Assembly (NCBI GenBank): GCA_021158245.1
Contig: JAGGVB010000058.1
Coordinates: 24,349 to 88,348, forward strand
Source of the DNA: a bacterium
GTDB lineage: Bacteria > Zhuqueibacterota > QNDG01
DNA length: 64,000 nucleotides
Direction: 5' to 3'
Shown here in pieces: positions 42,825 to 57,347 of the stretch; position 1 is the first letter of the stretch, and each line of letters opens with the position of its first letter. The translations under genes and the position numbers were made by a program. The notes beneath the pieces were generated by a model that worked only from the letters and a program-made list of their open reading frames with translations, made no database searches and was not told the DNA's origin.

Positions 42825-43340
42825 ATGAATACTAAAAAGATATTTATTATATTTTTTATAGCATTGTCATTATTATGCATTATTACAACTGTTAATGCCC
42901 AGACTGCAGATAATTTAAAAGGTATGCTAATTGATCTGAAAGGCTGGAATGCAAAAAAAGCTAATGGCATGGCTGTCAGCCTCGGCAGCATGAAAATGGC
43001 AAATGCATACCGCATTTATACGTTGAAAGATAAAAAAATTCATACAACAGTTTTGATAACAAGCAAGGAAGAGGCCTTACAGAAAATGGAGCCTGATATA
43101 AAACATAAGCCCAACTACAAAATTAGTAATTATACAATCAGAGGATTTAAGGTTGTTTCTGTTTATGATAAAAGAAAAAAGCAGGGTACTTTTATTGTTA
43201 CTCTGATAAAAAATAAAAGTAATTCCGGTGCAATATTTGCGTTTAATTACGATGGATTAAAAGAGAGAGAAGGTTTGGGCCTTGTTAAAAAGTTTGACTG
43301 GAAGAAGATGAAAAAAGAGGCAAAAGCTTTTCTTAAGTAA
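42825..43340 (+). CDS. Secreted hypothetical protein (signal peptide ...TVNA-QT), Lys-rich
   Basis: N-terminal hydrophobic signal sequence with an AXA-like cleavage site; no recognised domain. Confidence 0.45.
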   Translation: MNTKKIFIIFFIALSLLCIITTVNAQTADNLKGMLIDLKGWNAKKANGMAVSLGSMKMANAYRIYTLKDKKIHTTVLITSKEEALQKMEPDIKHKPNYKISNYTIRGFKVVSVYDKRKKQGTFIVTLIKNKSNSGAIFAFNYDGLKEREGLGLVKKFDWKKMKKEAKAFLK

Positions 43341-43775: not shown

Positions 43776-44150
43776 TTGCCAGGTAAAATCCTTATTATTG
43801 ATGATGATATGGGCATGAGGATGCTTCTTTCAAAATTTCTGCAGCGCCAGGGCTTTGAAACACTCGTTGCCGAGGATGGCCTTGAAGGAGTGGAAATTGC
43901 CAAAAAAACAAACCCTGACCTGATTATAATGGATGTTGTGATGCCTAGAATGGATGGAATTACAGCTGCGCGGCTGATTAAATTCTACAAACCGCTGAGC
44001 AATGTGCCGATAATTTTTCTAACGGCAAAAGATGACAGTAAGGAAATTGAACTTGCTCAGGAAACCCGTGCAGATGTATATATTACGAAACCATTTGATG
44101 TCCACAAAGTGATTGAAGTTGTTGAAGATCTTTTATCAAAAACTCAATAA
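43776..44150 (+). CDS. cheY: CheY-like single-domain response regulator
   Basis: REC domain with DDD acidic pocket, phospho-acceptor D (IIMDVVMP), T (FLTAKDD) and K (ITKPF); TTG start 7 nt after a GGAGG SD. Confidence 0.85.
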   Translation: MPGKILIIDDDMGMRMLLSKFLQRQGFETLVAEDGLEGVEIAKKTNPDLIIMDVVMPRMDGITAARLIKFYKPLSNVPIIFLTAKDDSKEIELAQETRADVYITKPFDVHKVIEVVEDLLSKTQ

Positions 44151-44174
44151 CGGACATGGGAGATTGATTAATAT

Positions 44175-44672
44175 ATGAGTGATAGAGATCAGTATTTGAT
44201 ATTTGTGCTGGATAAAAAAAAGTTTGCAATCAACATAAAATCTGTAAAGAGAATAGCTCTGTCTGTGGAAGTTACAGACCTCCCTGAAGGGCCTGGTATT
44301 GTGATGGGTATAATAAATGTAAAAGGCCAGGTTATTCCTGTTGTAAACATTAGGAAAAGGTTTGGAATGCCGGGAAAAGATATAGACCTGATGGATCATT
44401 TTATAATTACTAAAACTTCAACACGAATAGTAGCTATGGTAGTTGATGATGTTATCGAAATAACAAAGATTGCAAACAATAAGAAGATACTTAAGGATGA
44501 AATACTTCCGGGAATGAAGCATGTAGCAGGTGCATTGAAAATTGCAGGAGACATTGTTCTCATTCATGATATCGAATCTTTCCTCAGCCTCGGAGAGGAA
44601 AGGGAGATTGATAAGGCATTAAAAAAAGTTAACGAAAAAGCAAAAAAGGGAAAGAAAACGAGTAAAAAATGA
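44175..44672 (+). CDS. cheW: CheW-like coupling protein
   Basis: Single CheW domain (LIFVLDKKKFAINIKSVKRIA...PGIVMGIINVKGQVIPVVNI). Confidence 0.85.
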   Translation: MSDRDQYLIFVLDKKKFAINIKSVKRIALSVEVTDLPEGPGIVMGIINVKGQVIPVVNIRKRFGMPGKDIDLMDHFIITKTSTRIVAMVVDDVIEITKIANNKKILKDEILPGMKHVAGALKIAGDIVLIHDIESFLSLGEEREIDKALKKVNEKAKKGKKTSKK

Positions 44673-46138
44673 TATCCCGCGTACCAAATATTCTTCTTGA
44701 CCAGCTAAGCGTATTTATTAACAGCGAAATGGGACTCCATTTTCCAAAGGAGAGGAGATTGGATCTGCTGCGCGGTGTAAGCGAATCTGCAGAAGAATTT
44801 GGATTCACCGATGTAGAAATGTGTATTAACTGGTTACTTTCATCACCTTTAAAAAAACGTCAGATAGAAATACTTGCCCGCCATCTTACAGTTGGCGAGA
44901 CATATTTTTTCCGTGAATCAAGAGTCTTTCAGGCACTTGAAAAAGATATTATTGCAGGTATTATTCAGGCACGGAGAAATGGCACTAAAACTATTTGTAT
45001 ATGGAGTGCAGGATGCTGCAGCGGAGAAGAACCCTATTCAATTGCAATACTTTTAACCAGAATGATACCTGATATTGATTCGTGGAAAATTGTGATTTTC
45101 GGTACTGATATAAATATAGATTTCCTTGAAAAGGCACAAAAAGGAATTTATCGCGAATGGTCATTCAGGAATACTCCTTTCTGGATTAAAGAGAAGTATT
45201 TTACACGTATTGATGACGGAGTTTATGAGATAATTCCAGGGATAAAGCGGCTTGTAAATTTTAGTTATCTTAATCTCGTTAGTGTCGAGAACCCGTCATT
45301 TATTAATTTACAGTCTTTTGATCTTATCCTTTGCCGAAATGTTTTGATGTATTTTTCTCAGGGACAAGTCAGGTCGGTTATTAACAGATTTTATGAAGGG
45401 CTTAATGATAACGGATGGCTGATTGTAGGATCAAGTGAAGCATCCCATATCCTGTTTTCTCAATTTCAGACTGTCAATTTTCCCGGCGCGATTGTTTATC
45501 GTAAAGATACTTCCAAAACGCCTTTTGAATTACCGGAAATTACGCATGATGAACCAGATCTCCCTGAATTACATCCTGTTACTGTTACGGATTTTTCAAA
45601 ATTTATTACCACGGACAATGAAACCGAAGAAGAAGATGATTTTACAGAGGCAATTAACGCATTTGAGGCAGGGAACTATAAACTTGCAACTGAAATCCTG
45701 AAAAAAGTAGTCAATGATCCTGTTTTATCTGAGAATGTACAGGTTTATTTACTTCTGTCCCGCAGTTGTGCAAATCTCGGTAATTTAAAGCATGCACTGA
45801 ACTGGGTTGAAAAGGGCCTTAAACATAATAAACTTGATTTTCAATTATATCAGCTGAAAGCAGAGATTTATCAGGAAATGGGGAAGCTGGATAAGGCTGT
45901 AGAATCTTTGAAAAATGTAATATATTTGGAGCCTGACTCTTTTGTAGCGTATTTTATTCTCGGAAATATTTCGCATCAGCTCGGTAAAGATAAAGAAGCA
46001 AAAAAATGTTTTGAGAATGCTGAAAAGCTGCTCAGATTAAAAGAAAGAGATGATGTGTTGACTGAATTTGACGGAATTACTGCAGGAAGAATGATTCATG
46101 TGATAGAGAGTATGAAAAATACGGAGAATCCCGGATGA
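44669..46138 (+). CDS. cheR: CheR-type MCP methyltransferase with C-terminal TPR repeats (WspC/FrzF-like)
   Basis: CheR N-terminal and SAM-binding domain (IWSAGCCSGEEPYSIAIL), then about 150 aa of TPR (LLSRSCANLGNLKHALNWVEKGLKHNK...). Confidence 0.85.
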   Translation: MISRVPNILLDQLSVFINSEMGLHFPKERRLDLLRGVSESAEEFGFTDVEMCINWLLSSPLKKRQIEILARHLTVGETYFFRESRVFQALEKDIIAGIIQARRNGTKTICIWSAGCCSGEEPYSIAILLTRMIPDIDSWKIVIFGTDINIDFLEKAQKGIYREWSFRNTPFWIKEKYFTRIDDGVYEIIPGIKRLVNFSYLNLVSVENPSFINLQSFDLILCRNVLMYFSQGQVRSVINRFYEGLNDNGWLIVGSSEASHILFSQFQTVNFPGAIVYRKDTSKTPFELPEITHDEPDLPELHPVTVTDFSKFITTDNETEEEDDFTEAINAFEAGNYKLATEILKKVVNDPVLSENVQVYLLLSRSCANLGNLKHALNWVEKGLKHNKLDFQLYQLKAEIYQEMGKLDKAVESLKNVIYLEPDSFVAYFILGNISHQLGKDKEAKKCFENAEKLLRLKERDDVLTEFDGITAGRMIHVIESMKNTENPG

Positions 46139-46713
46139 CCGAGGAAAGTAAAAATTCTACTATTGAAAAAAATAATAGCATGAGTAAAATAATATACATG
46201 CCTGATAAAAAGGCGGTATTAAAAAAACGTGCAGAGGCTCTTGCAAAAGAGATGGCTGATGAATGGCAGGATAAGGATAAGTTCGAAGTTGTCGAGTTTA
46301 TTCTTGCATACGAGTTGTATGGAATTAAATCGTCTTTTGTACAGGAGGTTTACCCTTTAAAAAATTTTACTCCGCTGCCCGGCACGCCACCGTTTTTACT
46401 TGGAATTACGAATATTCGGGGAAGGATTGTTTCCATTGTTGATATTAAAAAGCTTTTTAATCTGCCTGACAGCGGTATTACTGACCTTAACAGAGTGATT
46501 ATAATTGAGAATGGAGAGAGTGAACTCGGTATACTGGCTGATAGAATAATGGGTATAAGAAATATTTCGGATGTTGATTTTAAAGCAAATTTATTGGTCA
46601 CAAGTGATACTATAGGAAATTATATACACGGGATTACCGAGGATAAATTAATTGTCCTTGATGTGGACAAAATATTTGGTGATAAAAGATTAATAATAAA
46701 CTCGGAAGTATAA
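46135..46713 (+). CDS. cheW: Second CheW-like coupling protein
   Basis: CheW domain (ILAYELYGIKSSFVQEV...LLGITNIRGRIVSIVDI) with an about 50-aa N-terminal extension. Confidence 0.8.
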   Translation: MTEESKNSTIEKNNSMSKIIYMPDKKAVLKKRAEALAKEMADEWQDKDKFEVVEFILAYELYGIKSSFVQEVYPLKNFTPLPGTPPFLLGITNIRGRIVSIVDIKKLFNLPDSGITDLNRVIIIENGESELGILADRIMGIRNISDVDFKANLLVTSDTIGNYIHGITEDKLIVLDVDKIFGDKRLIINSEV

Positions 46714-46751
46714 AAATATATTAATAAAATAAACTTTGCACGGAGTACACT

Positions 46752-48356
46752 ATGTTAAGAAATCTGAAATTAAAGACAAAAATCTTTTTCATCCCTTTTC
46801 TTGCAGGAATTATACTGCTTACGATTTTTATTACAGCGGGCTTGATCAAAACCCAAAATGATAAGCTCCTGAATAGTATCCGCACAGAATATCTACCGGT
46901 TCAGGTTTTTAATTCCGAACTTAAATCAATACTTCAGGAAATGAATAGTGTTGTTGAACATGCTGCTTTGACACGAAACAAAGTTTTGGCAAAACAGGCA
47001 GATATCATTCATCAGCAATTCATAGCGGAATTATCAAGGGCAGAATCTGATCCTGTAATTAAACTTAGTCTAATGCCTGATAAAAATGAGTATGATAGTT
47101 TTTCCAGTGCTTTTCTGGATGTTGTTGATAAAATATCATCAGGCAGCAGTAAGAATCTAATTAATAGAAGTTTACAAAAATTAAAACCCATGCATGATAC
47201 ACTCAACTCAATAATTCAAAAAAATATTGTTAGAGAAAAAAGAAACGTTAGTCAGGCATTTTCCAGCATAGGGTCCAAAAACAGATTATTAATTATTTTA
47301 ATAGGATTAATAATTTTTATTGGACTTGCAATGAGTATGGTATTATCAATAGCTGTAATAAAATCAGTAATGGAACCTCTTGACATTGTAGTTAATGTAG
47401 CAGAACAGGTTGCAGACGGCCAATTGACCATTGATATTCCGGAAACCGAAGGAACTGATGAAATGAGCTCACTCCTTAGAACTTTCAGGAGAATGGTTAT
47501 AAGCCTCAGGGAAATGGCTGTACAGATCAAGGAGGCATCTAATGCACTTGCTTCTTCTGCCGGCCAGATTTCTACATCTGTAACTCAGATTGCATCTGCA
47601 GCTGCAGAAACAGCATCTGCTGCTACAGAGACAAATACAACTGTTGAAGAGGTCAGGCAGACTGCAATTGATTCGAACAAAAAAGCAAAGCATGTGTCGG
47701 AAAGTGCTCAAAAGTCTGTAAAAATTTCACAGGCAGGTGAGAAAACCGTTGCGGAAACAATTGAAGAGATGCAGAGGATTGAAGAGCAGATGGAATCTAT
47801 TGCAGAAAGTATTATGCGTTTAAGTGAACATGGACAGGCAATAAGCAGTATTATTACTACTGTTGAGGACGTGGCAGAGCAGTCAAGATTATTGGCTGTT
47901 AATGCTTCAATTGAAGCTGTAAAAGCCGGAGAGCAAGGGAAGGGTTTTGCTGTTGTAGCACAAGAGGTCAGAACACTTGCTGAGCAGTCAAAACAGGCTA
48001 CAAACCGAATAAGAGCAATTCTTGACGAAATTCAGAAATCTACGAGTGAAGCTGTTATGAAGACGGAGCAGGGTACAAAGGCCGTTAAATCCGGAGTGGA
48101 ACAATCGGCAAAATCCGGTGAAACAATTCAAAGACTGGCTAACAGCGTTACTGAAGCAGCACAGGCCACTACCCAGATAGCAGTATCCAGCCAGGAACAG
48201 ACAGTCGGCATGGATCAGGTTGTATCTGCAATGGAATCAATAAAACAGGCCAGTAATCAGAATGTAAGTGCAACAAAACAGGTGGAAGCTGCTGCTCAGG
48301 ATCTTTACAATCTTGGACAGACTTTGATGGATATTGTGAAATTATATAAATTATAG
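46752..48356 (+). CDS. Methyl-accepting chemotaxis protein (2 TM, periplasmic region, HAMP, MA domain)
   Basis: Highly conserved signalling hairpin (RLLAVNASIEAVKAGEQGKGFAVVAQEVRTLAEQS); TM helices at about 10-30 and 170-195. Confidence 0.9.
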   Translation: MLRNLKLKTKIFFIPFLAGIILLTIFITAGLIKTQNDKLLNSIRTEYLPVQVFNSELKSILQEMNSVVEHAALTRNKVLAKQADIIHQQFIAELSRAESDPVIKLSLMPDKNEYDSFSSAFLDVVDKISSGSSKNLINRSLQKLKPMHDTLNSIIQKNIVREKRNVSQAFSSIGSKNRLLIILIGLIIFIGLAMSMVLSIAVIKSVMEPLDIVVNVAEQVADGQLTIDIPETEGTDEMSSLLRTFRRMVISLREMAVQIKEASNALASSAGQISTSVTQIASAAAETASAATETNTTVEEVRQTAIDSNKKAKHVSESAQKSVKISQAGEKTVAETIEEMQRIEEQMESIAESIMRLSEHGQAISSIITTVEDVAEQSRLLAVNASIEAVKAGEQGKGFAVVAQEVRTLAEQSKQATNRIRAILDEIQKSTSEAVMKTEQGTKAVKSGVEQSAKSGETIQRLANSVTEAAQATTQIAVSSQEQTVGMDQVVSAMESIKQASNQNVSATKQVEAAAQDLYNLGQTLMDIVKLYKL

Positions 48357-48392
48357 AGATGTTTTTATTAATCATAACGTGCAGGTGAAATT

Positions 48393-48818
48393 ATGCAGAT
48401 AAGTGATCCGGAGTTTTTTAAGCAGATTCTTGAGATGTTCAGAATGGAAGCGCAGGAGCATCTTGAAACGATATCTTCCGGTGTTTCGAAGCTTAAACAG
48501 GGAGTTACAGGGCTTGAACGCAAGGAAGTTGTGGAAACTATATTCAGAGCAGCCCACAGCCTGAAAGGTGCTGCAAGGACAGTTGGAATAACTGATCTCG
48601 AAGAAATCGGCCAGGAGTTTGAGAAAATATTTTCAATGCTGAAGCAGAAGGAATCCATGCTGACAGATGATACTTTTGAAATTTTTGATATTGCAGAGAA
48701 TCAGCTTGGGCTTCTGATAAAATCTGTTGACAAAGAAGGAAAGGTGCTGGGCGATAAATCAGAGCTTGTCAGGCTTATAAGCCAGATACATGAAAGAATA
48801 TTGCTGCAAAACGCATAG
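48393..48818 (+). CDS. Stand-alone HPt (histidine phosphotransfer) domain protein
   Basis: HPt helix with phospho-His context FRAAHSLKGAARTVGI; 141 aa. Confidence 0.7.
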   Translation: MQISDPEFFKQILEMFRMEAQEHLETISSGVSKLKQGVTGLERKEVVETIFRAAHSLKGAARTVGITDLEEIGQEFEKIFSMLKQKESMLTDDTFEIFDIAENQLGLLIKSVDKEGKVLGDKSELVRLISQIHERILLQNA

Positions 48819-48856
48819 AAAAAAATATAATTGCTAAAGGCTGGTAATTAGGAGAA

Positions 48857-51199
48857 ATGATGAAAAACGATGACGACTTTCTTAAAGAGCTTTTATCTAT
48901 GTTTAAGGTGGAGGCAGAAGAACATCTGAAAATTATATCTTCAGGCCTTATAGATCTTGAGAAAGCATCAGACGGTGACAGACTTGAAATTTTAGAAATA
49001 ATTTACAGGGAAGCGCACAGTTTAAAAGGTGCAGCAAGAGCTGTAAATCTTATCAAAGTAGAACATTTATGCCAGGCTCTTGAAAGTATTTTTGCTTTAT
49101 TTAAAAGCGGGGAACTTAATCCGTCAAGAGAAATATTTGATGTACTGCTTGATGCTGTTGATGTTGTATCAGATGCGGTTGATTCTCCTGATTCTACTGA
49201 TATTAATAATATTTACAACAAACTTGAGCGCATTGAAAACATGAGCGTGAAAACTGTATCAGAAAGTGAAGTCAAAAAAAATATTAAAAAGCAGGCAACA
49301 AATAAAAGGAAACCAGTTACTGTTAAAAAGAAAGAAACCGGTAGTAAAAAAGTAACTGAATCTCATAAAAAAGAAGATGTACCAGAAATAAAAGATGACA
49401 TAAAAAATGTTAAAAGAGTGGATACCAAACCAATTGTCACAGATACAATACGTATCCCCACGTCAAGAATGGATTCTATCCTTCTTCAGGTTGAAGAAAT
49501 GGTTTCTACCAAGCTTGGGACGGAGCAGGTTACAACTGATCTCAAAGAGGTCCTTATTACAATGGACATCTGGAGAAAGGAATGGGAAAAAGTATATTCT
49601 TCAATAAGAAGAGGGCCGTCAGGCAGATTGGAAATTCTAGATAAAAATTCGAGCGAAGCTGAAGCAGAGTTTTTTAATTGGAATTTTCATCAATTGAGAG
49701 ATGTTGATGACAAGCTTAACTATGTTTATAAACTTGCAGAAATAAATTTCCGTCAATTAAGCGGAATGATTGACAATCTTCTCGAAGATATGAAAACCAT
49801 ATTAATGCTGCCGTTTTCAACACTTTTAAAGTTGGTTCCGAAAGTGGTCAGGGATATCAGCCGGGATCAGGATAAGGATGTTGAGCTTGTTATGCGCGGC
49901 AGTACTACGGAAGTTGACAGAAGAATACTTGAAGAGATAAAAGACCCTCTCATCCATCTTTTAAGGAACTGTATTGATCATGGTATTGAAAAACCAGAGG
50001 AAAGAAAAAAAACAGGGAAGCCGGAACAGGGGATAATATCCATATCAATTTCTCAGATTGAAGGCGATAAAATTGAAATAGTGGTGGAAGACGACGGCGC
50101 AGGGATTAATCCTGAAAAAGTTAAGAAAACTGCTGTTCAAAGAGGGATAATAAGTGAGCAGGAAGCCAGGCATCTGAGTGAGAAAGAAGCTATTTCTCTT
50201 ATTTTTGAATCAGATCTCTCTACCAGCCCGATAATTACTGATATCTCAGGAAGAGGCCTCGGGCTTGCGATAGTACGTGAAAAAGTAGAAAAATTGGGCG
50301 GCTTGATTCAATTAGAGACAGAGACTGGTAAAAGGACACGCTTTCGTATTGTGATACCTGTTACACTTGCTACTTTTCGGGGTACCCTGATAGAGGCCGG
50401 AGGGAATAGTTTTGTTGTGCCGACTGTAAATGTGGAACGTGCAATGAGGCTGCCGGTTAAAAAAATAAAAACAGTTGAGAATAAAAGAGTAGTAACAATT
50501 CACAATAAAATGATTTCTTTAATCCACTTGAGCGATGTGCTTGGGTTGAGGCGTGATGTCGGAACTGCAGCACAATCAGATATGCTGCAGTTTGTTATAA
50601 TCAGATCTGCAAATAAAATGGTTGCACTCGGAGTGGATTCAGTAGTCAATGAACAGGAGTTTTTAGTTAAAGGCCTCGGAAAACAGATAATTCGTGTAAA
50701 AAATATTGCAGGAGCAACGATTCTTGGATCGGGAAAGGTGGTGCCTATTCTTAATGTCCCGGATATTATCAAATCCGCAGAAAAAGTAATATCTTCCCCC
50801 CTGCAGGAGGTATCAATGCAAAAAAAACAGGAAGAAAAGAAGTCTATACTTATTGCAGAAGATTCAATAACATCACGAACGCTGCTTAAAAATATTCTTG
50901 AATCAGCAGGATATTCTGTTAAAGCAACTGTTGACGGTGCTGATGCTTTTTCAGCTTTGCGAAGCGGCAGGTATGACCTTGTAGTCTCTGATGTGGAAAT
51001 GCCGAGAATGAACGGTTTTGAACTTGTGTCAAATATCAGGAAAAACAGATCAACAACAGACACTCCTGTGATTCTTGTAACAGGGCTTGAGTCCAAGGAA
51101 GACAGGGAGAGAGGTATTGAAGTAGGAGCTAACGCCTACATTGTAAAAAGAAGTTTTGATCAGAGTAATTTACTTGATGTTATAAGTAAGCTAATTTAG
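48857..51199 (+). CDS. cheA: Hybrid CheA histidine kinase with C-terminal receiver (HPt-P3-HATPase-CheW-REC; WspE/FrzE-like)
   Basis: HPt (YREAHSLKGAARAV), N box LLRNCIDHGIE, G1 DDGAGIN, G2 GRGLGLAIV, CheW-like P5, then a REC domain (ILIAEDS...VVSDVEMPRMNGFEL...LVTG). Confidence 0.9.
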   Translation: MMKNDDDFLKELLSMFKVEAEEHLKIISSGLIDLEKASDGDRLEILEIIYREAHSLKGAARAVNLIKVEHLCQALESIFALFKSGELNPSREIFDVLLDAVDVVSDAVDSPDSTDINNIYNKLERIENMSVKTVSESEVKKNIKKQATNKRKPVTVKKKETGSKKVTESHKKEDVPEIKDDIKNVKRVDTKPIVTDTIRIPTSRMDSILLQVEEMVSTKLGTEQVTTDLKEVLITMDIWRKEWEKVYSSIRRGPSGRLEILDKNSSEAEAEFFNWNFHQLRDVDDKLNYVYKLAEINFRQLSGMIDNLLEDMKTILMLPFSTLLKLVPKVVRDISRDQDKDVELVMRGSTTEVDRRILEEIKDPLIHLLRNCIDHGIEKPEERKKTGKPEQGIISISISQIEGDKIEIVVEDDGAGINPEKVKKTAVQRGIISEQEARHLSEKEAISLIFESDLSTSPIITDISGRGLGLAIVREKVEKLGGLIQLETETGKRTRFRIVIPVTLATFRGTLIEAGGNSFVVPTVNVERAMRLPVKKIKTVENKRVVTIHNKMISLIHLSDVLGLRRDVGTAAQSDMLQFVIIRSANKMVALGVDSVVNEQEFLVKGLGKQIIRVKNIAGATILGSGKVVPILNVPDIIKSAEKVISSPLQEVSMQKKQEEKKSILIAEDSITSRTLLKNILESAGYSVKATVDGADAFSALRSGRYDLVVSDVEMPRMNGFELVSNIRKNRSTTDTPVILVTGLESKEDRERGIEVGANAYIVKRSFDQSNLLDVISKLI

Positions 51200-51214
51200 G
51201 GAAGATAAAAACCT

Positions 51215-52327
51215 ATGATTAAAGTTCTTGTCACAGAAGATTCCTCTGTTATAAGAAGTTATCTCGAACATGTACTCAACAATGATCCTGAACTGACTGT
51301 TGTGGGAACTGCATGTAACGGGCTTGAAGCAGTTGAAAAGGCTGCTGAATTAAAGCCTGATGTTATTACAATGGATATTCACATGCCGGGAATGGACGGA
51401 TTTGAAGCTACAAGAAAAATTATGGAAACAAATCCTGTCCCGATTGTTATATGCAGTGCAAGCTGGGATCCCACTGAAGTTAGTAAAACTTTTCGGTCAA
51501 TGGAAGCGGGAGCAGTTGCAGCCCTGGAAAAACCGAGAGGATTTTCTCATACTGACAGTGACGATTCCCTGCGTCAGCTTATAGATACCGTAAAAGCAAT
51601 GTCAAGTGTCAAAGTCGTAAGGAGATGGGCACGTTTAAGAAAGAAAGAAACGGTTATTACTTCGCATCATGTGCATACAGGGCATAAAAAAAGAAGCGGG
51701 CGGAAAACTTACAAAATAGTTGCCGTGGGATCTTCAACAGGTGGGCCTCTTGCACTTCAGAGTTTGCTTTCAAACATAGACAGAGACTTTCCTGTCCCAA
51801 TAGTAATTGTTCAGCACATTGCACCGGGGTTTCTTACAGGGCTTGCAGACTGGCTTGGAAAGACAACAAAGTACGATGTGAAAATAGCTGAAAATAATGA
51901 AAATATTTTACCTCGGAAAGCATATCTTGCTCCTGACAGATTTCATATGCTGATAACAAAAGATTTTAAAGTAAAGCTGATAAGCGGAGAAAGCAGAGAT
52001 CGGCTTTGCCCGTCAGTAGCTCATTTGTTTAAATCTATAGGAGATGAATTCGGAATGTCAGGTGTAGGTGTTTTATTAACCGGGATGGGTAGAGACGGAG
52101 CTGCAGAATTAAAAGAAATGCATGATAAGGGGGCCCTTACCTTTGCACAGGACGAGGATAGCTGTATTGTATTCGGAATGCCGGGTGAAGCTGTAGCTCT
52201 CGGCGCAGCTGACAAGGTGCTTCCGTGCCCGGATATAGCTGAAGAACTTAATAAAATGTTGATAGATAATGATGCGGAATTCAGGGATAAAGAGAAAAAA
52301 AGAGTTATAACTCATACTAATCAGTGA
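51215..52327 (+). CDS. cheB: Chemotaxis methylesterase CheB (REC + methylesterase)
   Basis: REC (VLVTEDS...ITMDIHMPGMDG) and CheB catalytic domain (VAVGSSTGGP, GMGRDGA, catalytic H in VQHIAPGF). Confidence 0.9.
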   Translation: MIKVLVTEDSSVIRSYLEHVLNNDPELTVVGTACNGLEAVEKAAELKPDVITMDIHMPGMDGFEATRKIMETNPVPIVICSASWDPTEVSKTFRSMEAGAVAALEKPRGFSHTDSDDSLRQLIDTVKAMSSVKVVRRWARLRKKETVITSHHVHTGHKKRSGRKTYKIVAVGSSTGGPLALQSLLSNIDRDFPVPIVIVQHIAPGFLTGLADWLGKTTKYDVKIAENNENILPRKAYLAPDRFHMLITKDFKVKLISGESRDRLCPSVAHLFKSIGDEFGMSGVGVLLTGMGRDGAAELKEMHDKGALTFAQDEDSCIVFGMPGEAVALGAADKVLPCPDIAEELNKMLIDNDAEFRDKEKKRVITHTNQ

Positions 52328-52336
52328 GAAAATATT

Positions 52337-55300
52337 ATGTCAATGCAAGATTTAAGACCAATTGAAGCCGATATTGAAATATTAGTTGTGGAAGACAGTC
52401 CGACTCAGGCAATGCATTTAAAATACATACTTGAGCGGAGAAATTATACGGTACATATGGCAACGAACGGCAAGGATGCCCTTGAAATGATGCGGAAACG
52501 TAAACCGACTATCGTGATAAGTGACATTCTGATGCCTGAAATGGACGGGTACGAATTCTGCCGCCAGATACGTGCCGATGAACAGCTGCAATATGTCCCT
52601 GTAATCTTGTTAACACAACTTTTTGATCCGAGAGATGTGATAAGAGGTCTGCTCAGCGGAGCTGACAATTTTGTTACAAAACCCTACAGTGAACAATTCC
52701 TTGTTTCCAGAATTCAGTACATACTTGCAAATCAGGAACTTAGAAAGAACTCAATTACTGAAATGGGTATAGAAATTATTTTTGCAGGGCAGAAACATTT
52801 TATAACTTCCGACAGAATGCAGATTCTGGATCTTCTGTTTTCAACTTTTGAGAATGCTGTACAGAGAAATCAGGAACTTGAAGAGACTAATAAAGAATTG
52901 AGAAGAGCAATAGAGACAATAGAGACAATCAATGAAGTAACAGGCAAGTTGAACAGGATGCTTATGCCGGAAGATGTTGCACGTGCAATCGGAGACGGTG
53001 TCAAAAAACTCATTGACTATGATGAGTGTATTGTATATTCGATTGATGAAAGTAAAAAATATCTTATCCCGATATTTGCAGGCCAGAGACAGGGAGAGAA
53101 AAACAGCGATAAAGTTAAAAAGTTAAAAATCGGAGAAGGGATTGTGGGCCTTGTCTATTCCCGTGGAAAACCTGAAATGGTGGGGGATATAACAAAGCAC
53201 CCCAAGGCCAGGTATCTGAAGAACAAAAATGTCCCGACATATTCCGTTCTTGCAGTACCTATGCAGTATGAAAACGAGACAATGGGAGTTATAGCACTGC
53301 TTAAAACAGGGCTGCATCAGTTCAGTGAATCCCACATGCGTACTCTTTTAATTCTTGCAGGACAGGCTGGAGTTGCAATGGAGAATGCCCGGCTCCTGCA
53401 GGAAGAGAAGAGGAGGATAAGACAGCTTTCTCTGATTAATGAGATTTCACGAAAAATGGTGTCAACTCTTGACGTGGAAGAACTAAGCGTTTATGTTGTA
53501 GAGTCAATTCAAAATGAATTCAAAGAGGATACAATACTGCTTCTCGTTAAAGATGAAGATGAGAATAAACTGGTAATTGGAGCTCATGCGGGTATTGAAA
53601 GTAAAAAATTCCATGACGGCTGGATTTTGGAAAAAGACTCCTCTGCTGTATGGAAGGCTGCAAAATCCGGTGAAGTTGTTACTGTAAATGATATTAAGAA
53701 AATAAAGGATCTGCAGCCGCTAATTGCAGGTATTCGTTCGGAAATAGCAGCCCCTATTAAGAAAGGGGATAAACTGCTTGGAGTTCTGCACATAATGAGT
53801 AAAAAGAGTGATTCGTTTAATGAAAAGGATTCCGCTTTAATGAAAATGCTTGCGGATCAGATTGCAATGGCACTTGAGAATGCAAGATTATATGAAAGCG
53901 AAAGAAAAACAAGTGAACTTGCACAGCAGGCTAACAGAGCAAAAAGTGAATTTCTTGCCAATATGAGTCATGAGATCAGGACTCCTATGAACAGCATTAT
54001 AGGATTCTCCGATCTGCTGCTTCAGGAGAATCTGCCCGAAGAATTGGTCGATTTCGCAAAGACTATCAAGCTTAACGGTGAAAGCCTTCTGGAAATTATT
54101 AACCAGATTCTTGATCTGGCAAAGGTCGAAACAGGGCGTATGGAAGTGGATGTTGTGGAGTGTAATTTATCCGAACTTGTTGAAAATGTTTCACAGCTGC
54201 TCAGGCCGAGAGTTCTTGACAAAGGGCTTAAGTTTAAAGTTTCGACTGAACCTGAACATCTTCCGTATATTGAAAGCGACAGTCTTAAGATTCGTCAGAT
54301 TATGGTTAATCTCCTCGGCAATTCGGTCAAATTTACTGAAGACGGGGAGATAGGGTTTAGTGTAAATGTACGGAAACAGAAGAATGCCAGAGGTATGCTG
54401 GAAGTACATGTATCAGATACCGGTATTGGAATAGCCCCGAACAAACATCAAGCTATATTTGAATCGTTCACTCAGGCTGATGCGTCAATGACACGCCGGT
54501 TTGGGGGAACAGGCCTTGGCCTATCATTGAGCAAGCAGATGGTTGAACTGTTAGGCGGCAAAATCTGGTTTGAATCTGACCTCGGAAAAGGGACTACATT
54601 CCACTTTAGCGTGCCTGTAAGGATAATTTCGGAAAAAGTCGGAGTTCCTGTTAAAAAAGTGCAGAAGGCACAAATAAAAGCTGTAGGTGCCGGAAAAGGA
54701 AAAACAAAGCAGATAAGTATACAGACAAAAAAGAAGCGTAAAGAGCCGCTTGTGCTTTTAATAGAAGATAACGGCAGTGCAATGGAACTGCTTCAGAGAT
54801 ATCTTAAACGTGACGGCTATGAAGTGCAGTGCAGTACAACAGGTGATGATGGAATTCTTAAGGCAAAATTCTACAGGCCTGATGCTATTATTCTGGAAAT
54901 TTTATTACCTGGAAAGATGGACGGGTGGGAAGTGCTTAGAAATCTTAAATCAAGTACTTTAACCAAAGATATTCCGGTCATAGTATGTTCCGTACTTTCA
55001 AACCAGAAAAAGGCGTACAGCCTTGGTGCAGTGGAGTATATTGAAAAGCCTGCACAGGAGAAGGCCCTTCTTGATACTTTACACAAGTCCATAGGGCTGA
55101 GTGATAAGAAAAATAAGGAAGTCCTTGTTGTAGATGATGACAAATCCGTACACGTGCTTTTCGGCAAACTTCTTAAAAGCATGGGTGTAATTGTGAAGAA
55201 TTTTGAGAATGGGAATGATGTAGTAAAGTATCTTGAAAGCCCGCATCCTATTGCACTTGTAATACTGGATCTTTTAATGCCTGGTGTAGACGGGTTTGAG

Positions 55301-56224
55301 GTTCTTAAAAAGATCAAATCTTCAGAAAAGACAAAAGATATACCAGTTGTTATTTATACAGGTAAAAAACTTACTTCAAGAGACAGATCCCGGCTTAATG
55401 AAAATTATGCACTTCTTTTACAGAAAACAAGTGAAACGCCTGAAACACTGTTAAATCAGCTTAATAATCTTGTTATGCCGTCTCTCAGAGAGGCAATTGA
55501 TAAAGCAATGCAGGAAGAGGAAGAGGCTGTAAGAATTCTTCTTGCAGAGGACGATCCTTCGGGGCAGAAACTAATGCGGCTTCTTTTAAGTCAGTTGGGA
55601 TATGCTGTAGACCTTGCAGGTACAGGCCAGCAGGTTCTTGATATGCTTAAAAAGAAAGATTATGATATTGTGCTTATGGATATGGAAATGCCTGTAATGG
55701 ATGGCTTTACTGCAACGCGCAAGCTTAGAAGTATGGAGAAATACAAGGATATGCCGATAATTGCGCTTACTGCACATGCAATGAAGGAACACAAGAAAAA
55801 GACACTTGAGGCAGGATGTACGGATTATCTGTCAAAACCTATAAATCGCGACAAATTGCAGGATATCCTCAATAAATACCTTGCAGACCCCGGCGTACCG
55901 GAGGAAAAAGAATCAAAAACGGAACAGACAAATTTGATTGCAGATGACCCACTTATGGCTGAACTAAGAGAATTCTTCATTGATGACCTGTCTAAAAAGA
56001 TAAAGAAATTTAATGAGGATATGGAAAAGAAGGATATTGATGAAGTTATAAGATTCGGCCATTCTCTTAAAGGCACAGCAGGATCATACGGATTCCCTGT
56101 TTTTTCCAAACTTGGTGCTCAGATAGAAGATTACGGCCGTGAAGGCAAGTGGGATGAAATAGCATCTCTGCAAATTGCTATTGTAAAAGAGTATAAACTG
56201 CTTGGAGTTAATGATGAAGCCTGA
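52337..56224 (+). CDS. Giant hybrid sensor kinase: REC-coiled coil-GAF-GAF-HisKA-HATPase-REC-REC-REC-HPt
   Basis: REC1 (ILVVEDS...[12 protein letters not shown]); two GAF-like modules; H box [18 protein letters not shown]; G2 box [24 protein letters not shown]. Three further REC domains (LLIEDN...[12 protein letters not shown]; LVVDDD...[11 protein letters not shown]; LLAEDD...[11 protein letters not shown]) and a C-terminal HPt ([14 protein letters not shown]). Confidence 0.85.
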
Positions 56225-57347
56225 GAATATGACTATTTTAACTGTTGATGATACACCGGCCAATATTCGTCTTTTAACTCATTATCTTGAGAAAGAGGGC
56301 TATAATGTACTTACAGCAGAAGACGGATTTGAAGGATTCAAATCTGCTATTAAGTACCATCCCGATCTTGTGCTGCTCGATGTTATGATGCCCGGAACTG
56401 ACGGATACGAAGTTTGCGAGCTTTTAAAAGCCGAAGAGACAACAAAAGATATACCTATTGTTTTTTTAACGGCAAAAACAGATGTTGAAGACAGACTCCA
56501 CGGTTTTGAATTGGGAGCTAAAGATTTTATAACAAAGCCTTTTAATCTTTCCGAAATTTCTACGAGAATAAAGACACAATTAGAACTTACCTATCTTAAA
56601 ATCCAGAATGAGCATTTGTCAGAAGCTCTTTTTTCCTCCCAGAGAGCTGCAGGGTCAGGTTATATTGGTTTAAAACTTTCAACTCAGATAAAATCTTTTT
56701 TGGATATGCTTCACAGCAGGTTAAAGAGAATTCAGGAAAAAGCTGATCCTGACAGCGCAGTTCAACAGGCTGCTTCAATTGCTGTTGAACTTGAGTCACG
56801 TATTAAATTATTAGTGGAAACATGGTATGATTTTGCCGATGAAAAGCCCGAAATTCCCAGAGTTTTTAATCTGGTTCCTCTATTAATAGATATTGTTGAG
56901 CTCATAGAATTCAATGTAGAAGGAATATCTGTCAAGTATTCTGTCCCGGAAGAGCCTGTGATGATTGAAAGCAGGTATTCGTTAATTCAGCAGGCCATGA
57001 TTGCATTACTTGTAAATCTGTCGGCAGAAGTAAAATATCAGGGCGGGATAGAGATTTCGAGCAGTATGGGCCGGCTTCCGAAAAGGTTTGAAAATCAGCT
57101 AAAGGAAAAGCCTGAGAGCGAATATCTGCATATCAGTATCCAGTGTGAATGCAAATGGGGAACTGATGATATACCTTCGGTAGAGTTAGAAAATTTTTAT
57201 TTCTCCAAAAATCATCCTGATGCTGCATTTGGCCTGACTGTGGCATCTGCGTTTGTTACAAGATATCAGGGAATTGCAGCAATTGAGCAGGGCAATAGTA
57301 ATGGAGTTATGATTTCTCTGTACATTCCTGCAAATAGCGCAGCATGA
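56202..57347 (+). CDS. Response-regulator receiver fused to a divergent histidine-kinase-like C-terminal domain
   Basis: Canonical REC (ILTVDDT...[12 protein letters not shown]...FLTAKTD...ITKPF), then about 250 aa with an H-box-like [13 protein letters not shown] and a degenerate HATPase-like tail ([33 protein letters not shown]). 23-nt overlap with the upstream gene; the exact start is uncertain (three Met within 10 codons). Confidence 0.55.

Follow-up and report, generated by a model that had tools for sequence, protein, structure and literature searches.

The locus considered here raises the question of what a very large hybrid histidine kinase does inside a chemosensory operon: from where it would receive its input, which of its four receiver (REC) domains could carry phosphate, and to what protein that phosphate would pass. 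The kinase is encoded on the forward strand at 52337..56224 of a 64,000-nucleotide stretch of DNA (hereafter the window; contig JAGGVB010000058.1 of assembly GCA_021158245.1) from an uncultured bacterium of the FCB group, in an open reading frame (ORF) that starts with ATG and remains open throughout its 1295 codons. It is the ninth gene of a ten-gene module, directly after a CheB gene, which is the position that wspR occupies after the CheB-type gene of the wsp operon. We consider it moderately probable that the kinase serves a chemosensory pathway of the Wsp-like (alternative-cellular-function) type, so labelled for its shared gene and domain features, as the output response regulator, and that it functions as a Rec-controlled unorthodox hybrid kinase whose relay leads to REC-X, the product of the last gene of the module.

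The domain count and order that the original prediction had read from the 1295-residue protein were borne out by a Pfam scan, which gave REC1-link1-GAF1-GAF2-HisKA-HATPase_c-REC2-REC3-REC4-HPt with each family above its curated cut-off (link1 is the stretch between REC1 and GAF1). The four Response_reg domains (E 1.9e-95) are REC1 (aa 14-131; 52376..52729, +), REC2 (aa 804-920; 54746..55096, +), REC3 (aa 928-1045; 55118..55471, +) and REC4 (aa 1065-1182; 55529..55882, +). Two GAF domains (GAF/GAF_2/GAF_3; E 1.2e-33 for GAF_2) lie at aa 201-352 (GAF1; 52937..53392, +) and aa 378-515 (GAF2; 53468..53881, +). The HisKA match (PF00512, E 1.6e-20) covers the DHp domain at aa 535-600 (53939..54136, +), which carries the phospho-acceptor His545, and is followed by the catalytic domain at aa 648-765 (54278..54631, +), in which HATPase_c (PF02518, E 9.9e-30) matches aa 648-762. 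The C-terminal HPt domain (aa 1204-1295; 55946..56221, +) was detected as Hpt (PF01627, E 3.6e-9) at aa 1209-1274. No hydrophobic segment of the membrane-spanning type was found in the 1295 residues, and the kinase is therefore predicted to be cytoplasmic. Judged by its sequence, with a HisKA histidine, HATPase_c, two complete downstream receivers (REC3 and REC4) and an HPt histidine, it fits the unorthodox hybrid class; it fell below the cut-offs of the NCBIfam equivalogs BarA, TorS, HrmK, ArcB, LuxQ, RcsC and LvrA, the best of which was BarA (492 bits versus a cut-off of 890).

Is so long a reading frame one gene? An assembly or annotation fusion of a REC-GAF-kinase gene to a REC-REC-REC-HPt gene would find some encouragement in the Lys-rich, poorly conserved linker (aa 766-803, conservation 0.25) that parts the two halves of the kinase. 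A search of a 5.8-billion-protein collection, however, recovered the identical protein on ten contigs and about 50 further clusters with the same Pfam architecture at 54-90% identity, and the search score fell sharply after these orthologues, from 1254 to 610 bits. Fifty-one orthologues were aligned, and this alignment is the basis for all statements on invariance in the kinase that follow. None of the 51 is split, the reading frame being continuous in independent assemblies (JGI, ENA, NCBI, Logan); 45 are collinear proteins of 1287-1329 aa, and the remaining six (P0047-P0052, 1127-1147 aa) are without exactly aa 347-513, corresponding to GAF2. No Shine-Dalgarno-like sequence was found upstream of the in-frame start codons within 54500-54900. 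Thus, neither the orthologues nor a look for the internal ribosome-binding site and start near 54700, which the original prediction had named as signs of such a fusion, refuted the ORF as a single gene; the fusion reading appears to be effectively refuted already, and we assign it a negligible probability. Generic REC and HisKA peptides searched against genome contigs returned 79 unrelated hybrid kinases and a single orthologue (L001).

The capacity of each receiver for phosphotransfer was assessed by aligning the four kinase receivers with four others of the locus and with E. coli CheY. The catalytic quintet is complete and invariant or nearly so in REC1 (E19, D20, D63, T93, K115), in REC3 (D933, D934, D978, T1008, K1030) and in REC4 (E1071, D1072, D1115, T1145, K1167). 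In REC2, the residue that aligns with the acceptor Asp57 of CheY is Glu854, the alignment being anchored by a conserved Pro at +4, and this glutamate is invariant (51/51); E810, D811, S885 and K904 are retained, and the position following the conserved Thr/Ser (T+1) is occupied by Val886. Because an invariant Glu replaces the acceptor Asp, REC2 is a pseudo-receiver that cannot be phosphorylated. Lying between the catalytic domain and the true receivers, it has as its most likely role that of a fixed domain for regulation or docking. A survey of pseudo-receivers found that about 2% of PF00072 domains are without the Asp, that Glu is the common replacement, and that the small T+1 residue is often lost (PMC12632262). 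REC3 is itself atypical: Leu1027 occupies the position of the aromatic switch residue, and the Lys is not followed by a Pro. REC4 is a canonical receiver whose best PDB matches are the receivers of hybrid kinases (7c1j, RcsC and SLN1).

These results revise part of what the original prediction had claimed. The four DxxxMP(x)MDG receiver cores that it counted come to only three, since REC2 has Glu854 at the acceptor position; the full catalytic set is present in REC1, REC3 and REC4. The view that three consecutive receivers form an uncommon phosphate sink or relay needs similar correction, as the first of them is a pseudo-receiver, at most two could accept phosphate, and multi-receiver precedents exist. 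Its H-box and C-terminal HPt motifs have held up well: His545 and, within the HPt, His1242, K1245 and G1246 are invariant. So are the HATPase_c residues N658/N662, D694/G696/G698, F708/F711 and G723/G726/G728, which we assigned to the N, G1, F and G2 boxes by our own reading of the sequence, and with His545, His1242 and these box residues all invariant, the kinase-to-HPt chemistry should be intact. This pattern also bears on the idea that the chief role of the tandem receivers is to drain CheA and its HPt partner as a phosphate sink, the kinase core and C-terminal HPt being secondary. Sinks of this kind have been documented where a receiver is fused to a CheA-type kinase (PMC3868531; PMC10782961), and this protein has four Response_reg domains. 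However, one of the three tandem receivers cannot be phosphorylated (E854), the CheA of this locus already has a REC of its own, and the invariant His545, N/G1/F/G2 residues and His1242 speak for a functioning relay from kinase to HPt, not a passive sink, so that we regard the sink as very unlikely.

At the input end, the kinase shares with Rec-controlled kinases an N-terminal receiver with an invariant acceptor (Asp63). REC1 is extended by link1 (aa 132-200; 52730..52936, +), which is near-invariant in the orthologue alignment (conservation 0.96) and, searched alone, had neither a Pfam nor a PDB match. To gauge how widely the pair occurs, kinase aa 1-205 were used as a HMMER query against 1.84 billion cluster representatives (50%-identity clusters), which at E<=1e-30 returned 3,732 such clusters. 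Of the 150 best matches, nearly all cover about aa 10-200, with single-stretch matches of up to about 60% identity. In each of ten relatives scanned with Pfam, a REC is followed by an unannotated gap of about 75 residues; seven have a HisKA (or HisKA_2) and HATPase_c core downstream, with or without PAS/GAF domains, and three have PAS or GAF domains only, with no kinase core. REC1-link1 thus appears to be a common, unannotated input module of Rec-controlled histidine kinases, thousands of them. AlphaFold2 applied to kinase aa 1-362 gave confident models of REC1 and GAF1 (predicted local distance difference test, pLDDT, about 80-88 for GAF1) and, for link1, a low-confidence beta-hairpin followed by a long helix (pLDDT <50 for aa 135-174, about 40-60 for the helix at aa 160-207); the shallow alignment of 12 sequences used is the probable cause of the poor link1 model. 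NCBIfam and PDB alignments that extend past the REC had suggested that link1 might be a relic of an OmpR/PhoB winged helix. This idea was not supported, as link1 has no Pfam or PDB match and a BLASTP alignment to E. coli PhoB ends at residue 130.

Between REC1-link1 and the DHp domain lie the two GAF domains. The nearest solved relatives of the GAF region are the GAFs of PtsP and DevS (E about 5e-9 to 1e-8), and this similarity search against solved structures indicates no ligand. The small-molecule input that the original prediction proposed for the GAF domains is possible, though neither supported nor refuted by this, and the domains could just as well serve as transmission modules. Of all the domains of the kinase, GAF2 is the least conserved, and it is dispensable in one sub-clade, that of the six shorter orthologues.

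The genes preceding the kinase encode a chemosensory apparatus, all on the forward strand: a single-domain CheY-like receiver (43776..44150), identified as the first gene of the module by Pfam and synteny; a CheW (44175..44672); a CheR methyltransferase with C-terminal TPR repeats (44669..46138); a second CheW (46135..46713); a chemoreceptor (46752..48356) with two hydrophobic segments, a periplasmic region of about 145 aa, a HAMP domain and an MCP signalling domain; a stand-alone HPt with His55 (48393..48818); a CheA-REC hybrid (48857..51199) composed of Hpt/P1, HATPase_c, CheW-like and C-terminal REC domains, in which no P2 domain was detected; and a CheB with REC and methylesterase domains (51215..52327), which ends 9 nt before the kinase start. 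After the kinase comes REC-X (56214..57347, +; 377 aa), the start of which overlaps the kinase stop by 11 nt. Spacing between genes ranges from -11 to 38 nt from CheY through REC-X and is then 121 nt to the next gene. The ten genes occur in identical order in seven of seven divergent loci (62-100% kinase identity), and their flanking genes differ. Because the order is constant while the flanks differ, the conserved unit can be taken as CheY through REC-X, 43776-57347. A scan for promoters and terminators performed at chance (55 versus 44±7, and 12 versus 10.5±3.2).

The stand-alone HPt and the P1 domain of CheA are paralogues, having in common an AHSLKGAAR His motif and a similar N-terminal helix, and His55 of the stand-alone HPt is conserved in the five loci examined. 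The pathway would thereby contain two P1-type phosphodonors in addition to the ArcB/BarA-type HPt of the kinase itself. The cytoplasmic part of the chemoreceptor is about 280 aa in length, roughly 40 heptads. In two loci, an extra 147-aa gene of the PBP_like_2 family, a periplasmic phosphate-binding-protein fold, lies directly before the chemoreceptor gene (L087:3899-4342 and L090:3833-4276), and the window is without it; its product may present a ligand to the receptor in those lineages. Upstream of the module in the window is an ORF of 171 aa (42825-43340, +) with no Pfam match, which is a called gene in the two near-identical contigs with a long enough upstream flank (L081 and L083) and which lies outside the module conserved in divergent loci.

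The distribution of conservation along this unit is informative. When pieces of the window were compared with four loci at 62-69% kinase identity, the most conserved were link1 and HisKA (91% each), REC1 (84%) and REC2 (81%), together with the REC of REC-X (81%) and the CheA REC (78%); the CheY at the head of the module stood at 74%. Identity was lowest in the periplasmic part of the chemoreceptor (16%), the last 250 residues of REC-X (20%) and GAF2 (30%). Within the chemoreceptor, the periplasmic domain (aa 30-175; 46839-47276, +) is 15-18% identical and the signalling part 74-78% identical, suggesting that the sensed signal probably differs between relatives. REC1 and the REC-X receiver are nearly invariant across orthologues. 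The phosphorelay core is constant, and the sensor and effector ends drift.

Taken with published precedents, this pattern argues for an input to REC1 from the adjacent CheA or HPt, as the original prediction had supposed. In the Che3 system of Rhodospirillum centenum, the CheA-REC hybrid CheA3 controls CheS3, a kinase encoded in the che3 cluster, by phosphorylating its REC1 (PMC3868531), and in LvrB a phosphorylated N-terminal Rec leads to a coiled coil of the linker helix (alpha-S), release of the catalytic domain and activation (PMC13269768). The support at the present locus is indirect and comes from strict synteny (with the kinase placed 9 nt after CheB in a module that is preserved in 7/7 loci), from the conservation of REC1-link1 and from these experimental systems, and we consider the proposed input plausible.

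An alternative is that the kinase is an autonomous, GAF-sensing hybrid kinase, with REC1 fed by its own HPt or by another kinase, and that its link to the che genes is one of co-expression only. Both GAF domains score well in Pfam, numerous REC-link1 kinases have architectures whose linkage to che genes was not part of the survey, and transfer from CheA to REC1 is a step that we infer. All seven of the seven loci, unrelated in their flanks, nevertheless have the kinase directly after CheB; GAF2 can be dispensed with and shows little conservation while REC1-link1 is near-invariant; and the search against solved structures found no ligand-type similarity for the GAFs. We therefore look upon an autonomous kinase as quite unlikely.

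The final gene of the module bears on the fate of the phosphate. REC-X begins with a canonical receiver (D12, D13, D56, T86, K108), and its C-terminal 245 residues have no Pfam match. An AlphaFold2 model built with 59 orthologues (pLDDT 87.8) runs from the REC through a long helix and a helical hairpin to an alpha/beta domain. In a Foldseek search of the PDB, the best match of this model, extending along the full length, was LvrB (8vc9; E 4.8e-18), the Rec-controlled kinase of Leptospira, and the DHp-CA cores of ZraS, RetS and CckA came next. The position of the H-box His corresponds to Thr157 in REC-X, as placed by weak sequence alignments to KinB and ThkA. There is no His at this position in 46 of 59 REC-X orthologues, DxGxG is absent from 57 of 59 and the G2 glycines from 56 of 59; a distant outlier, P0230, keeps all three features. 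Because the fold resembles that of LvrB and the catalytic features are mostly gone, REC-X is, as modelled, most simply described as a degenerate Rec-controlled pseudo-kinase. One of its orthologues is labelled candidate division KSB1, that is, Ca. Zhuqueibacterota of the FCB group, which hints at a lineage for the window without assigning it; the orthologues all stem from assemblies of uncultured bacteria. At one locus (L088:15093-21979), two large PAS-HisKA-HATPase-REC-HPt hybrid kinases (1065 and 1202 aa) are encoded directly after REC-X; there, they are candidates for interaction with the pseudo-kinase.

These observations can be assembled into a pathway, in which the two-transmembrane-segment chemoreceptor, the two CheW proteins and CheA-REC would form a sensing array that CheR-TPR and CheB adapt. 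CheA would phosphorylate its own P1 His, the stand-alone P1-like HPt, or both, and either could donate phosphate to Asp63 of REC1. Phosphorylated REC1 would then, by way of link1, or its helical segment, and one or both GAF domains, switch the DHp-CA core between kinase and phosphatase states. From His545, phosphate would pass to Asp1115 of REC4 and/or Asp978 of REC3 and on to His1242 of the HPt, with REC2 (Glu854) as the non-phosphorylatable, fixed regulatory or docking domain. Finally, His1242 would serve Asp56 of the translationally coupled REC-X, which is proposed to act through protein-protein contacts. We infer every phosphotransfer step in this series, on a basis of observed domain architecture, catalytic residues, synteny, conservation pattern and the modelled fold of REC-X.

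Several considerations weigh against the scheme. The T+1 residue of REC1 is a bulky and invariant Gln94 (52616-52618, +), and this position is Ala or Gly in about three quarters of true receivers (PMC12632262); Gln94 may restrict access to Asp63 to a specific donor. AlphaFold2 did not resolve the fold of link1 (pLDDT <50), through which REC1 is proposed to act. A pairwise similarity matrix of the nine receivers shows REC-X, CheY and REC1 to be mutually most alike with no decisive grouping, and receiver similarity accordingly singles out no phosphotransfer partners. Lastly, by analogy to CheY3 as the target of CheS3, the single-domain CheY could be the target of the kinase instead.

In that event the relay would end on CheY (43776-44150) rather than REC-X, or serve both, and REC-X would be a modulator or be targeted in parallel by CheA. 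The module keeps a CheY at its head (74% identity), CheS3 does phosphorylate CheY3 in R. centenum (PMC3868531), and no two receivers of the locus are more alike than CheY and the REC-X receiver, such that they could share a donor. However, it is REC-X that is translationally coupled to the kinase by the 11-nt overlap and that always follows it, and its REC is as conserved as REC1. We judge an ending on CheY to be unlikely and prefer the relay to REC-X.

A more elaborate version of the relay to REC-X can be imagined, although we would give it a low probability. The module may constitute a three-tier cascade, one so far not known to have been described as a unit, from a CheA-REC array to a Rec-controlled unorthodox hybrid kinase to a Rec-controlled pseudo-kinase, in which REC2 acts as a gate, whether by phospho-mimic docking or as a second-messenger site like that of ShkA, deciding the flux to the HPt, and in which REC-X, in the manner of RetS with GacS, uses its DHp-like hairpin to pair with some other kinase.

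While most non-motility chemotaxis-like pathways have unknown outputs, this locus offers a clean, compact example in which the output would be a second multi-step phosphorelay ending in a pseudo-kinase. Its practical value is limited, the hosts being uncultured. The REC extension of about 70 residues (link1), common to thousands of Rec-controlled kinases, deserves a domain model and a structure.

Among known systems, Wsp of Pseudomonas (WspA-F, WspR) is similar in having a CheA-REC without P2, a CheR-TPR and two CheW proteins (PMC5907407), one dedicated chemoreceptor, and a gene for the output response regulator directly after CheB. The two differ at the output, which in Wsp is a REC-GGDEF cyclase and in the window would be a hybrid kinase and then a REC-pseudo-kinase; the window also has the extra stand-alone HPt and CheY genes, and its receptor gene lies mid-operon. 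An unrelated Che-like cluster from another metagenome (L091:3-8923) encodes CheA-REC, CheB, a WspR-like REC-GGDEF protein, a hybrid kinase and CheY, and the kinase (1058 aa) has four receivers, with a REC-link1 module included. The cluster lends the proposed pathway further support, and it shows that the family described here is not alone in having multi-receiver kinases downstream of CheB.

CheS3 resembles the window kinase in its N-terminal receiver and in its che cluster, which includes a CheA-REC and a single-domain CheY (PMC3868531). CheS3, however, is described with a PAS domain in place of GAFs, and its kinase domain phosphorylates CheY3 directly; the same paper describes no C-terminal receivers, HPt or pseudo-receiver for it (PMC3868531), whereas the window kinase has all three. 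The likeness is one of domains and gene setting, and the lineages differ, CheS3 belonging to the Alphaproteobacteria and the window to an uncultured FCB-group bacterium.

In LvrB (PDB 8vc9), as in the window kinase, a receiver is the sensory input of a DHp-CA core, but LvrB joins the two by a helical linker (PMC13269768), while link1 and two GAF domains stand between them in the window kinase, which goes beyond LvrB in having a pseudo-receiver, two receivers and an HPt after the catalytic domain. REC-X has the Rec-DHp-CA fold of LvrB, with Asp56, and differs from it in being without the phospho-acceptor His (Thr157) and the G1/G2 ATP-lid motifs. In the Lvr system, too, the Rec-controlled kinase (LvrB) is linked in a chain with a hybrid kinase before it (LvrA; PMC13269768).

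Caulobacter ShkA (6qrj), which was among the PDB sequence matches, is also cytosolic and has a pseudo-receiver directly after the catalytic domain and then a true receiver (PMC7010744, PMC6969517). The ShkA pseudo-receiver binds cyclic di-GMP (c-di-GMP), and for REC2 only the domain order is alike; unlike it, REC2 keeps all of its active-site residues except for the Asp-to-Glu change and has two receivers and an HPt after it. A Myxococcus xanthus kinase, RodK, as cited in PMC3868531, carries three tandem C-terminal receivers, of which it phosphorylates one selectively; neither an N-terminal receiver nor an HPt nor a che-cluster context is mentioned for it in the passage cited, and the window kinase differs in that one of its three tandem receivers is a pseudo-receiver.

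In the literature searched, no description was found of the combination of these elements or of the conserved ten-gene setting. Each of the elements is known, the kinase combining Rec-controlled input, a kinase-REC-HPt relay, multiple receivers, a pseudo-receiver and Che-to-kinase coupling. The module hence unites topics that have been studied separately, namely Che-to-kinase coupling as in CheS3, Rec-controlled kinases as in LvrB, and pseudo-receivers.

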